A stretch of DNA of 64,000 nucleotides from an uncultured Planctomycetota bacterium (GTDB lineage: Bacteria > Planctomycetota > Planctomycetia > Isosphaerales > Isosphaeraceae): the NCBI GenBank assembly GCA_963737655.1, contig CAVTTN010000002.1, positions 576,001-640,000 of the forward strand. Direction: 5' to 3'. Both the position numbers and the translations under genes were made by a program. Shown in pieces: positions 1 to 40,973 of the stretch. Position 1 is the first letter of the stretch. Every line of letters starts with the position of its first letter. The notes below the pieces were generated by a model that was not told where the DNA came from, made no database searches, and was given only the letters and a program-made list of their open reading frames with translations.

Positions 1-191
1 GATTGTCGCCGCCCGATCAACAAGAGGAGCTTCATATCGAGCGGGTCCGGGCTGGGCTCCTCGAAGAAGGCGAACGCTGAGGGCAGAACATTTCGGCGAA
101 CTTGCATTTGACGATTCTTGGTTTTTCAGCCTACTTGTCCTGTGTGCCTCCTCTGAGGCCAAACTCTCCGACAAAAACAATCGAGACATTC

Positions 192-581
192 ATGATCAGG
201 ACCAGCCGAAATGGCGGATCGACGCAGATCACGCCCACCAGCGATTGTGGTTTCGGGTCCGATGCAGGCATCGGACTTCAATCAGCCCACCCAAGTGCCC
301 CAGCATCTTGTTCCGACGGGCACGAGTGGGTCGTGTTCAGCACCGCCCTACTGGACGCTTGCCTCATGCTTCAGTGCATCGAGTGCGGGACCCACGGGAC
401 CGTTGACGACCCAACCAAGGAAGAGTGGTCGGAGGCGTTCTATGCCCCGTCCAATCCCTACCGGTGGGAGGACGAGTCGAGGGTCCGCATCAGGGGCCGA
501 GGCCCCCTCTACGTCGGGAAGTTCGGCGACCAAGCGGACGATCGATCCCCGTCCCCTCGTGCTGAAGGGATGGTGGCCTGA
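192..581 (+). CDS. Hypothetical protein with possible Zn-binding motif (C..GH..CIEC)
   Basis: ORF 102..581, ATG at 192 more plausible; TGATG overlap with next gene. Confidence 0.55.
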   Translation: MIRTSRNGGSTQITPTSDCGFGSDAGIGLQSAHPSAPASCSDGHEWVVFSTALLDACLMLQCIECGTHGTVDDPTKEEWSEAFYAPSNPYRWEDESRVRIRGRGPLYVGKFGDQADDRSPSPRAEGMVA

Positions 582-1129
582 TGGCGACGTGCGAGAAGAT
601 CGACCCGATTGTCATCAACCCCGACGGCTCGATCCAGGATGAGGTCTTCTCCCTGGACGAGAACGACTTCCTACAGGGCTGGCAGCCCGTCACCGAGCCG
701 ACCGGGAAAGACGAGGAAGAATCCGAACGGGTGGGGAAACGAATCCGAGCTTGGCCGCAGCAGTGCTGGTTCAACGCCCGACGGGCCGTCATGCGCCTCT
801 CGGATTACGCCGACGCCAGCTACGTCGAGGGATATTGCATGATGGTCGGTGGCTGGGTGATGGAGCACGGGTGGGTCTACCGCCCGGACGGCACGGTCAT
901 CGACCCTACACTCCCCAGAAAGGTCGTCGCCTACTTCCCCGGCCTGGAGTTCCGGGGTCTTGCAGGCATAAGCGAGTTCCTCGCCACTCCGAGGGGCCGG
1001 AAATGCAAGCGGTCCCCGTTCTTCTACGCCTTCGGCTGGGGCGGCGGGGACAGCCCCAGCTTCTCGGCATCCATGCTTCGGGCGTTTGCTTACCAGAAGG
1101 ATTCCCTGTCGGTAGTGCAGGCAGCATGA
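581..1129 (+). CDS. Hypothetical protein, transglutaminase/papain-like Cys-His-Asp motif
   Basis: QCWFNA ... YVEG ... EHGWV ... VIDPT motif order. Confidence 0.6.
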   Translation: MATCEKIDPIVINPDGSIQDEVFSLDENDFLQGWQPVTEPTGKDEEESERVGKRIRAWPQQCWFNARRAVMRLSDYADASYVEGYCMMVGGWVMEHGWVYRPDGTVIDPTLPRKVVAYFPGLEFRGLAGISEFLATPRGRKCKRSPFFYAFGWGGGDSPSFSASMLRAFAYQKDSLSVVQAA

Positions 1130-1317
1130 GGGGGCTTCCAGGGGGCGTTTCCCGCCCGGGCTGAGAACTTCATAGTTCGACCCGTCATGGCGTAGGGTGT
1201 CACCGATCCGTCATTAAACGTCCCCGGCCCCGAACGTGGGCGTAGGAGGGAATGCTTTCGCAGTATCCTCCACGCCGCATCCGCCAACGTGAGCTTCCGG
1301 CTGACCGAGAGGGGCAT
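1090..1317 (-). CDS. Small hypothetical protein
   Basis: ATG overlaps stop of 1317..1556 (TGATG); 3' end overlaps the convergent gene, so uncertain. Confidence 0.35.
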   Translation of the reverse strand: MPLSVSRKLTLADAAWRILRKHSLLRPRSGPGTFNDGSVTPYAMTGRTMKFSARAGNAPWKPPHAACTTDRESFW

Positions 1318-1556
1318 CAGGGTTGCGGCAGGACGGGCCGAACCCCCTGATTCGCCACCTGTCGGGACTCGGGCGAGATGGCCCTCTTCAGATCGCCGGG
1401 GGTCAACGATGTCCCCCGCTTCTTCGCCCTCTCTATGGCCCTCTTCGTATCCTCAAGTCCTGGGGATGCGAGGCTGATCGCTGTCGCCCGTGTCAGCCGG
1501 AGGGGGCTGGGAGTGAGGGCCTGCCGAGACTGAACGTATTCCGAGAAACTCATCAT
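1317..1556 (-). CDS. Small hypothetical protein, N-terminus MMSFSEYV (capsid-targeting-like)
   Basis: ATGA overlap with HNH stop at 1553-1556. Confidence 0.6.
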   Translation of the reverse strand: MMSFSEYVQSRQALTPSPLRLTRATAISLASPGLEDTKRAIERAKKRGTSLTPGDLKRAISPESRQVANQGVRPVLPQP

Positions 1557-2134
1557 GCGACGGCCCTCCGAGGTCCAGGCCGATCGGCGACGAGGGTTTC
1601 GGGCTGCTCGGAGGGTAGGAGATGCCTCCAGGTCAGGCCCCGGACGATGGCCCTGACGTTGGACTCGCTGACTTTGAAGTGGTCGGCGATGCTCCTCATC
1701 GACCGACCGTCGGCTCTCATCCTGCGGATTTCGATGACTTTGGCTTCAGTCAATTTCGAACGGAGCCTCTCCCCCCTGGCTTTGGTGCCGTGCTTCACCG
1801 CATCGTCGCTGTTCGTCTGATGGGTGCCCCAGTACAAGTTCGTCAAGGCATTGTTCAAGCGGTCTCCATCCTTGTGGCAGGCGATGCACCCGGACCGTCC
1901 CGGTCCTTCGAATGCCCCCAAGACAAGTCGATGTATACGGCGGATCGCCTTCTTACCATCCGTCGCAGGGAGATTCACGGTGGAGTAGCCGTCACGGAGG
2001 ATCCGCATGAGGGGGAGCCAGGTGTCGGTGGGCAGCCGGTAGCGGCCCCGGCGGACCCAGCAAGACTGGACCTCACCGTCCCTACTTACACGGTATCCGG
2101 GGAACTCGGGAATTGGGCGGTAGAAATTGTTCAT
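1553..2134 (-). CDS. NUMOD4 + HNH endonuclease with C-terminal HTH (phage homing-endonuclease type)
   Basis: YRPIPEFPGYRVSRDGEV (NUMOD4); IHRLV...CHKDGDRLNNALTNL..GT...N (HNH_3); SKLTEAKVIEIR..SIADHFKVS (HTH). Confidence 0.9.
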   Translation of the reverse strand: MNNFYRPIPEFPGYRVSRDGEVQSCWVRRGRYRLPTDTWLPLMRILRDGYSTVNLPATDGKKAIRRIHRLVLGAFEGPGRSGCIACHKDGDRLNNALTNLYWGTHQTNSDDAVKHGTKARGERLRSKLTEAKVIEIRRMRADGRSMRSIADHFKVSESNVRAIVRGLTWRHLLPSEQPETLVADRPGPRRAVA

Positions 2135-2222
2135 GCTCGTATATATGCGGCTATCATCGAACTTTTCGCACTCTTCAGGGATACGGAAATTTTTCTACGG
2201 GGCCATCTCTATATACTGCATG
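2132..2222. promoter_or_regulatory. Divergent AT-rich promoter region with TATATAC-N1-2-GC-ATG before both start codons
   Basis: Minus strand TATATACGAGCATG (TATATA 2140-2145, ATG 2134-2132); plus strand TATATACTGCATG (TATATA 2210-2215, ATG 2220); no Shine-Dalgarno on either side. Confidence 0.55.
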
Positions 2223-39484: not shown

Positions 39485-40044
39485 TGGGGGCTCTCCACCG
39501 CTCGTGGCTTGATCGGACCGCTATGCCCCGTTTATGTATTCCCTCAAGTTCCCATGCCGAGGAAGTTTGAGTATTGGAAAGGTGCTCCCAGGTAGGTCAA
39601 GAGATGGGCGTCGAACCCAGGGGCACCCGGAGCGAGGCATGGTGAACGCCCAACATCCCAAGGGACCGCCGAGTCTGACCCAGAATCCCTGCGTCCATCC
39701 AGAACAAGCGAGCAGGAGACCCTCGTGCCGAGAGACCACCATCGCCAAGGGCGGGACAAGGACCTCTTGCGGAGACTGGCGAAAGATCGAGTCGGTCAGC
39801 ATAAAGAGCCTGGTCGCCAGGACTCCGAAGCCCCTCTGGTCGTCGTTTGGCAGGTAGTTAACGACAACGGCAATCCGGTCCAGACTTTCTCCTTCGCCCA
39901 GAAGGACGACGCAGAACACCTCGTAAAGGCCCTGGCGGACCGGCCCGGTGGCCCTTTCACGCTTCGCCAGGCCAAGGTGTCTTCAGAAACCATCGACGAC
40001 CTTCCTCCAGCCGACAAGCTGCCTTCCTGGGGCTCCCGAAGGAG

Positions 40045-40266
40045 ATGTGGGAACGGGCGACCTATCGATCACTCCCCGATTCTCCCGGCCCGATCGTGGG
40101 TTCATCCTCGGGGGAGACAGAGACTCTCCTATTCAGCGTCCTGAGCGGGAACGAGAAGCCGGTTGTCCTCAAGGTCGAGATGAGCCTGGACCAGATGATC
40201 TTCCTGGCGAGCAAGATCATGAACCACGTCGCCAGGATGACCAAAGAGCCCATAATAAGGCGGTGA
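40045..40266 (+). CDS. Small hypothetical protein
   Basis: Short ORF with protein-like composition only. Confidence 0.3.
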   Translation: MWERATYRSLPDSPGPIVGSSSGETETLLFSVLSGNEKPVVLKVEMSLDQMIFLASKIMNHVARMTKEPIIRR

Positions 40267-40772
40267 AGATGATCGGCGGACCGTGCACGCAGAATGAGTT
40301 TGGAAGTCGGGCTGAGGGTCGGATGTTCTCGGGATGAAGTGCTGGCGAAGTTGAAGCGGGTGGTCAACCGGCGACATGGGCGGTCCATCTTGCGGAGTGC
40401 CGCCACGATGCCGATGCTGGGCGTCCAAAAAAGTCTCGTCGAACGAGTCCAACATCTCCGACGGTCGGGGCAAGATGCGCCTCGGCCCTCGCCAGCCGAT
40501 CGGGCTGCGAATTCAACACCGTTGAAGCCGGTCGTCACCTGCTACCATCCTTGCCCGATCAGGGGACCCCGGCCAGCGAAGGCACGAGCAGGAGGAGATG
40601 GAAATCCCTTGCGATTGCTTATGAGTGTCCTGGAAGAATTATTGACTGGACATCTGGTTTTCGGGAGAAAGCGTCTCGCCATCCGGCATCGGCTCGGGGC
40701 ATGGCATCCAGTTCTTGTCGGGCTGGGTGATGGTCGGACACTTCGAGCCGGTCGAGAGTCGTCCTCCCTGGG

Positions 40773-40790
40773 TTTTGTGAATTCACAAAA
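40773..40790. promoter_or_regulatory. Perfect 18-bp palindrome TTTTGTGAATTCACAAAA near attR
   Basis: Directly visible; function inferred. Confidence 0.5.
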
Positions 40791-40931
40791 AATCCCCTTC
40801 TTCGCCCCACACGCCCTGCGAAACACCGGCAAAGTCCGCAAACTATGGGACGCCCTAAGTTTCGCCGACACAGGGACTTGAAGACGCAAACTTGACAACG
40901 GGAGGGGTTTCTGGAAAGATGAGGGCTCGAA

Positions 40932-40973
40932 CTACGGAACCGAAGGTTAGAGGTTCGAATCCTCTCGGGTGTA
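40932..40973 (+). other. attR: 3' half of tRNA-Arg(ACG), anticodon loop to acceptor stem
   Basis: CTACGGA-ACCGA-AGGTT-AGAGG-TTCGAAT-CCTCT-CGGGTGT-A; upstream lacks a D-arm and 5' acceptor strand. Confidence 0.88.

Follow-up and report, generated by a model that had tools for sequence, protein, structure and literature searches.

A sequence-only reading of planctomycete DNA had described near-total avoidance of the tetranucleotide CGCG, and this depletion is confirmed and proves larger than first described. The DNA in question is a 64,000-nucleotide stretch (the window; C2:576,001-640,000 of the source genome, G000) from an uncultured member of the Isosphaeraceae. Its positions 1 to 40973 form the right half of an 80,057-bp element (C2:536,917-616,973) in a tRNA-Arg(ACG) gene. 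Comparisons with other genomes place this island in a family of large Isosphaeraceae elements, most of them integrated at tRNA genes. The purge was probably driven by Type II restriction in host cells at each transfer, with selection acting site by site and cargo being exchanged within the purged pool.

Outside one insertion sequence (IS), the island portion of the window contains 2 CGCG, where a maximal-order Markov model predicts 209 (Poisson P ~1e-86) and the rate of the host flank predicts ~339. The near-absence had been recognized correctly by eye, although only the copy at 27519-27522 was counted and a second, at 13561, was overlooked. GGCGCC, reported as missing from the island outside the IS, is indeed missing there (9 copies expected by the Markov model and 35 at the host rate). 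CGCG reappears at 41271, just past the right attachment site (attR), and is as frequent from there on as had been claimed. Across G000 as a whole there are ~9 CGCG per kb and just three long depleted regions, which rules out a host-wide depletion. The proposal that CGCG depletion could serve to find boundaries and sister elements also bore fruit. To the left, the island extends a further 39 kb beyond the window. With both IS copies removed (75.7 kb), the native element holds 2 CGCG versus ~406 expected. Its intergenic DNA has 1 versus 48 expected, and its coding DNA has 2 versus 406 in codon shuffles that preserve protein and codon usage.

The loss in all codon frames, its GC-neutral replacement and its maintenance through recent divergence together argue for selection. 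Counts have dropped to zero or nearly so for CGC followed by G, for GCG preceded by C and for NCG followed by CGN. Among alanine codons that follow C, the fraction of GCG is 0.00 (0.39 elsewhere), GCC rises to 0.86 and GCA is unchanged at 0.08. CGCG is replaced mostly by the GC-neutral synonyms GCC and CGG, not by deamination products, and TGCG (1.06) and CGCA (1.05), together with CGTG and CACG, lie between 1.02 and 1.11 of the codon null. CGT before G is slightly raised (0.17 versus ~0.11 after renormalizing), as is A/T before CGN; the small CGT excess is in line with ordinary transition bias. For 16 orthologue pairs that are 85% or more identical, reshuffled synonymous changes give ~85 new CGCG and 12 were counted, which is an upper figure because the genes had been pre-filtered to at most two CGCG and the observed count was made on computed mosaics. 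The corresponding figures for control words in the same pairs are 114/119 for CCGG and 127/120 for GGCC. Genes of the DISARM defense system from another G000 island (island B, below), compared with those of genome G123, were predicted by reshuffling to have 69 new CGCG and have 8. Palindromes are depleted beyond composition and codon use, and lost by selection rather than mutation, as is characteristic of Type II site avoidance.

Related CGCG-free elements of ~30-150 kb, with differing defense cargo, occur in other Isosphaeraceae genera and in metagenome contigs. Observed and expected CGCG (with IS blocks removed before counting from the elements of G074, G123 and G012 and from island C) are 0/650 in the 150-kb element of G074, 3/666 in G123, 1/229 in G130, and 0/324 and 0/103 in the partial elements of G107 and G072; less clean are G012 (40/479) and G106 (22/250). 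Host flanks of the sisters are at 0.71-1.09 of expectation. The purged elements span 56-69% GC and have differing sets of missing 6-mers. tRNA genes stand at the boundaries of the G107, G123 and G012 elements, and in G107 the purge begins at the very base that adjoins tRNA-Gly. Island C (G000:C2:4,061,985-4,109,962, loci L006-L008) is a second G000 member of 48 kb with CGCG at 12/245. It adjoins tRNA-Gln/Cys with a 21-bp repeat and has ArdC, ParB and integrase genes, and the IS66 and ISAzo13-type insertions within it retain CGCG. Island B (G000:C2:1,517,688-1,543,161, loci L004 and L005) is a 25-kb satellite-like element at tRNA-Lys with a 52-bp attachment repeat, whose backbone is CGCG-normal and whose DISARM class I block is CGCG-free (cargo 0/97) and 86-92% identical to that of G123.

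A ParB-like backbone gene used as bait retrieved loci with observed/expected CGCG below 0.15 in 21 of 25 metagenome cases and 13 of 17 genome cases; this gene is present in 13 of 98 sampled Isosphaeraceae and in none of 302 other Planctomycetia. With a phage-like ATPase as bait, half of the loci (10/20) were CGCG-depleted. Across nine elements compared, ArdC anti-restriction genes occur in 7 and the ATPase in 6. Defense cargo comprises BREX type 2 in the window's element, a BrxA/BrxB-type BREX plus Pycsar in G074, and DISARM in G123 and G107. The AAA/DUF2997 module of the window's element was ruled out as a marker of the trait, with 78 of 80 related loci keeping CGCG; close relatives of its AAA gene come from Isosphaeraceae-labeled records. 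In a quick tree the CGCG-free AAA copies form one clade, which includes a CGCG-normal locus, L063. The G044 element (C2:3,620,001-3,693,900, loci L355-L358; 57% GC) has CGCG at 102/273 and the core six 6-mers at 1/79. This apparent regain of CGCG, together with the position of L063 inside the CGCG-free clade, suggests that the CGCG pressure can lapse. Shielding of such members by an N6/N4 methylase was considered and set aside, there being no PF01555 match in the examined part of the G044 element.

The pressure had been thought specific to CGCG and GGCGCC, and in this respect the sequence-only reading was too narrow. GGCGCC is one among many purged words, and two sister elements retain some of it (27/87 and 22/109). 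In the native element, 38 six-base palindromes are expected five times or more, and 16 of these fall below 0.15 times the expected number; CTCGAG, GTCGAC, GCCGGC, CGGCCG, GAGCTC, AAGCTT, CTGCAG and CCATGG each have a count of 0. Under a second null that preserves proteins and codon usage and forbids CGCG, interrupted palindromes are also depleted in the window's element (GACN3GTC 2/34, GGTNACC 2/17, and CACN3GTG), and GCGC is at ~0.3. Other interrupted palindromes were lost from particular sisters (CAGN3CTG 0/27 in G074; CCAN5TGG 0/37 in G123). CAGCTC/GAGCTG is lost too and, with CAGCTG and GAGCTC, makes up the degenerate palindrome SAGCTS. CGATCG, GAATTC and TGATCA are retained in the window's element. 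Such element-specific sets of interrupted palindromes, with some palindromes kept, look like enzyme targets rather than hairpins; the enzyme names given here are those we take to match the purged words. Avoidance of 6-mers in the element correlates with that in the host (rho 0.48, n=38). As a separate observation, CGATCG exceeds the CGCG-free codon null in most purged members (76/51, 102/67, 71/44, 86/67 and 69/41).

The IS in the window is 2,660 bp long and has perfect 19-bp terminal inverted repeats and an intact 8-bp target duplication; its transposase matches the IS1 family with a score below the NCBIfam cut-off. It contains 2 GGCGCC and 17 CGCG (21 expected), close to the 15 or so estimated by eye. 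Its normal CGCG, together with the perfect repeats and undamaged duplication, argues that this IS arrived after the purge, as had been proposed. A second IS, near the left end of the element, has 4 CGCG and three further chromosomal copies at 99.9% identity. A 12-bp tandem repeat (7787-7834) lies in a small open reading frame (ORF) of the first IS.

The defense block carries pglW, pglX, pglY, pglZ, brxD and brxHI in a single locus, as in BREX type 2, with pglY scoring 1069, under the NCBIfam cut-off of 1700. BREX had been supposed to share the whole history of the element under the same pressure. Its loss of CGCG (1 versus 129 expected) agrees with this idea, but of the copies in the window's island the block keeps nearly all CCCGGG (8 of 9) and most AGCGCC/GGCGCT (31 of 35), which points to a separate history. 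AGCGCC/GGCGCT, described as common in the island, is thus common in this block only. To judge from these words, BREX probably joined later or was acquired from a different element within this gene pool. The pglX gene is read as two ORFs split near 30,000 (27276-30853), the result of a true frameshift or a long-read error.

Several features of the element were observed directly: its boundaries, word counts, all-frame loss, GC-neutral replacement, maintenance over recent divergence, family and controls. The account of them that we consider probable is as follows. Elements would repeatedly enter new hosts in unmethylated form and be cut there by Type II enzymes, including a postulated CGCG cutter; CGCG is the target of BstUI/ThaI-type enzymes. 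Host restriction enzymes would be the agents, and every site would carry a small independent risk, so that hundreds could be removed singly. Host DNA would retain CGCG because a cell with such an enzyme would also methylate its own sites, later IS arrivals would keep theirs, and cargo (BREX-1, BREX-2, DISARM and others) would circulate in the purged pool. The elements seen encode no recognizable transfer machine, and a helper would therefore move them. Nucleases for two purged words are present in the host group: XhoI-family enzymes in 9 and BsuBI/PstI-family enzymes in 17 of 121 family genomes, whose targets we take to be CTCGAG and CTGCAG, respectively. The hosts themselves avoid CTCGAG and GTCGAC approximately five-fold.

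A number of results weigh against restriction by host cells. ThaI-family enzymes, the only CGCG cutters covered by the search (BstUI/FnuDII/BepI-type enzymes fell outside it), occur in 0 of 121 family genomes, and no C5 methyltransferase match was found in G000, whose genome is 88% complete. The hosts' own avoidance of CGCG is slight in G000 (0.92 by the Markov model, 0.76 of the codon null). Host enzymes should also strike plasmids, prophages and loci resembling integrative and conjugative elements (ICEs), but 13 plasmid-size contigs (first 20 kb each) keep CGCG at 0.55-1.08 and 20 loci at TrwC/TraG matches (ICE-like elements and prophages) keep it at 0.74-1.07. The same side of the balance holds the pre-filtering and mosaic counting in the orthologue test, and the finding that no gene is common to all nine elements compared, the window's element having neither ArdC nor the ParB-like gene; the family would accordingly be linked by gene sharing rather than by a single marker. 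Published trends for large plasmids and temperate phages, given below, tell in the same direction.

Many of the CGCG-keeping plasmid contigs and TrwC/TraG loci have lost 6-mers, and in other Isosphaeraceae mobile DNA it is GCGC that is purged in place of CGCG: 5/170 at L375 (G107:C153, a TrwC locus), 1/21 at L182, 0/9 at L188 and 15/137 at L208. Double-stranded entry as the sole reason for the purge is weakened by the fact that some TrwC loci adjoining terminase genes, which are prophage-like, keep CGCG. C5 methylases are present in 53 of 121 family genomes, and of 30 C5 methylase loci 0 are CGCG-poor. The host methylase P0001 was ruled out as the CGCG agent because it is in only 4 of 121 genomes. 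Its similarity to the methylase of plasmid pSB13 is 52%; that enzyme is presumably TCGCGA-specific, though its record names no target. The codon tests and the host and donor controls support the original suggestion that the mobile element was under selection, with restriction the most likely cause; no CGCG-specific enzyme was found.

An alternative that we regard as unlikely ties the CGCG agent to the spread of the family itself. A nuclease of a helper or member would cut CGCG with no partner methylase to protect it, and DNA lacking the word would count as self; the 6-mers would still be lost to host restriction. CGCG loss is the only feature common to nearly all members across genera, 6-mer sets being variable, and it has spared the plasmids, ICE-like loci and prophages of family genomes. 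The elements examined yielded no relaxase, coupling protein, VirB4-type ATPase or terminase, and the window's element has a solitary gene for a putative PD-(D/E)xK nuclease. However, no nuclease or other gene is universal to the nine elements, which disposes of a universal nuclease encoded by them. The PD-(D/E)xK gene was matched in one of two sister regions searched and is outside the set of genes found in at least 5 elements; ArdC suggests conjugative entry, and a search of viral contigs with two backbone genes returned no relatives.

It is also doubtful that an orphan methyltransferase of the hosts marks CGCG, with the methylated, hemi-methylated or unmethylated state triggering a methyl-directed or repair nuclease; the loss of GATC in coliphages offers an analogy. 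Orphan methylation would account for hosts that retain CGCG, and G000 encodes a beta-class N6/N4 DNA methyltransferase (C2:6,236,742-6,237,629; L143:1396-2283) without a recognizable neighboring nuclease, PF01555 matches of similar strength being present in 117 of 121 family genomes. According to the parts of the source consulted, GCGC, the word purged at L375, is methylated by all Planctomycetota of a hot-spring study (bioRxiv 10.64898/2026.06.24.734251). Viral loci that carry the same beta-class enzyme gave no hint of its specificity, though, and its orthologues occur in other planctomycete families, whose AAA/DUF2997 loci keep CGCG (78 of 80). Moreover, CGCG is not among the motifs that Blow et al. 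give for Planctomyces limnophilus.

Very improbable is descent from an unsampled donor lineage with a wholly CGCG-free genome, whose DNA has yet to adapt to host composition. Ordinary cargo genes, such as those for dehydrogenases and hydrolases, are as clean as the backbone, as this would predict. No CGCG-free genome was found among 121 genomes of the family and 302 others of the class, the lowest ratio of SSCGCGSS to SSGCGCSS being 0.59, and five low-count genomes sampled directly have CGCG at 0.69-1.03; the range of GC content and differing 6-mer sets are likewise at odds with a single donor. Mutational loss through CGCG methylation and C-to-T deamination has in its favor the slight rises in CGT before G and in A/T before CGN. 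It is scarcely credible and largely refuted by the codon null, because 400 deaminated sites would lift TGCG, CGCA, CGTG and CACG far beyond 1.02-1.11, replacements are chiefly GCC and CGG, and many purged words lack CpG.

Site avoidance itself is known, but the removal of a 4-mer in hundreds of copies from large integrated elements goes against published trends and offers a counter-example to the rule that such elements do not evade restriction by rewriting their DNA and that 4-bp sites are too numerous to purge. The absence of CGCG serves as a one-word tag: it delimits elements, some to within a few bases of a tRNA, and can be used to find sisters, to date IS insertions and to follow defense genes between vehicles. 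It also predicts that the Isosphaeraceae, which are difficult to manipulate genetically, have a barrier directed at CGCG, and designers of DNA meant to enter their cells can take practical guidance from the purged words. As a long shot, Isosphaeraceae might harbor an undescribed family of large defense islands, moved by helpers, that pass a CGCG-cutting checkpoint from which the plasmids, ICE-like elements and prophages of their hosts are exempt. The checkpoint could be a nuclease with no methylase, to which lack of CGCG would be the password of self. If so, any gene carried on such elements would bear the mark, as does the DISARM block of island B.

Features of the window are collected in Table 1; gene calls come from a purpose-written codon-score script, and start positions are therefore approximate. 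At the left end of the element are a tyrosine integrase gene (C2:537,272-538,693, minus strand, reading towards attL; phrog_1 match, E 1.6e-10) and an excisionase-like HTH gene. Further content includes a phage-like ATPase, an N6/N4 methylase, DUF5131, many small cargo genes, the AAA/DUF2997 module and BREX type 2. A CGCG-free gene similar in appearance to that for the solitary PD-(D/E)xK-like nuclease stands alone amid CGCG-rich DNA at G106:C1:5,608,204.

Table 1. Features of the 64,000-nucleotide window (window positions unless marked C2).
Feature	Position	Strand	Remarks
Purged right half of tRNA-Arg element	1..40973	.	CGCG- and palindrome-depleted
HNH endonuclease gene	1553..2134	-	common to G012 element
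Insertion sequence, IS1-family-like, with P63C passenger gene	5348..8007	-	unpurged; single copy in G000
Backbone module: 324-aa protein, AAA ATPase, DUF2997 protein, small protein	9478..12564	-	identity 73-87% to G074 and G012 elements
Leftover CGCG near 5' end of NOV_C ORF	13561..13564	.	ORF 13557-14222, longest start
NOV_C (PDC-S36-like), ASCH, putative PD-(D/E)xK nuclease (14678-15262), conserved 110-aa gene	13734..15591	.	adjoins defense block
BREX type 2: brxHI, brxD, pglZ, pglY, AlbA_2 gene, pglX, pglW, HTH regulator	15627..35359	-	
Leftover CGCG within pglX	27519..27522	.	
Right-end cargo: hydrolase fragments, methyltransferase, unknown genes	35361..40931	.	0 CGCG vs 28 expected
attR, 42-bp direct repeat, 3' part of tRNA-Arg	40932..40973	+	partner copy C2:536,917-536,958, left of window
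Host chromosome, control	40974..64000	.	CGCG 204/226, GGCGCC 21, both normal

The element resembles ICEs and integrative and mobilizable elements in its site-specific integration (an integrase and 42-bp attachment repeats), and members of the family share with them defense cargo (BREX, DISARM) and ArdC and ParB-like genes. It differs in that no relaxase, coupling protein or type IV secretion system was found among its 83 proteins, nor among 99 of the G074 element; TrwC and TraG-D_C matches fall outside the CGCG-free stretches, and P-loop_TraG and MOBP relaxase were matched in 0 of 5 genomes. Phage hallmarks are likewise absent: the elements in 5 genomes contain no Terminase_6N match, and 53 backbone proteins include no structural PHROG. 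With tycheposons, in the parts of their description consulted (bioRxiv 10.1101/2020.12.28.424599), and with other tRNA-integrated elements lacking transfer genes of their own, it has in common a tRNA site, modular cargo, no conjugation genes found and, at one end, a tyrosine integrase accompanied by an excisionase-like HTH gene. The Isosphaeraceae elements are far larger and defense-rich, with an ArdC/ParB backbone, and here the minus-strand integrase points outward to attL, unlike that of tycheposons (a comparison of orientation, not of integrase lineages); in those same parts no passage on restriction was found.

In plasmids, 6-bp palindromes are avoided more than in host genes, in step with the enzymes of the host group, as the sections consulted of Shaw, Rocha and MacLean (2023, PMC10359461) describe, and the Isosphaeraceae elements are depleted in such words too. 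The same sections report that avoidance is strongest in small plasmids, that large ones use protective genes and that plasmids show no excess avoidance of 4-bp palindromes, whereas these integrated elements of ~30-150 kb have shed a 4-mer expected 200-650 times. The size rule recurs in a 2026 plasmid study (PMC13478746, seen in part), which names integrative elements as outside its analysis. CGCG is commonly methylated in phyla other than Planctomycetota (PMC8919816, PMC9516812, PMC4752239, in the parts consulted). Rusinov et al. (2018, PMC6286503), in the portions consulted, found that non-temperate double-stranded DNA phages eliminate orthodox Type II sites nearly completely and show no sign of avoiding clearly asymmetric Type I/III-like words, and that temperate phages eliminate sites less often because of their integrated phase. 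The Isosphaeraceae elements are integrated and have no recognized phage structural genes, yet show site loss like that of lytic phages. Our literature search, which covered few subscription papers, returned no description of CGCG purging in planctomycetes. While failing the ICE, prophage and tycheposon features tested, the element behaves as a site-avoiding mobile element and looks similar to helper-dependent tRNA islands.

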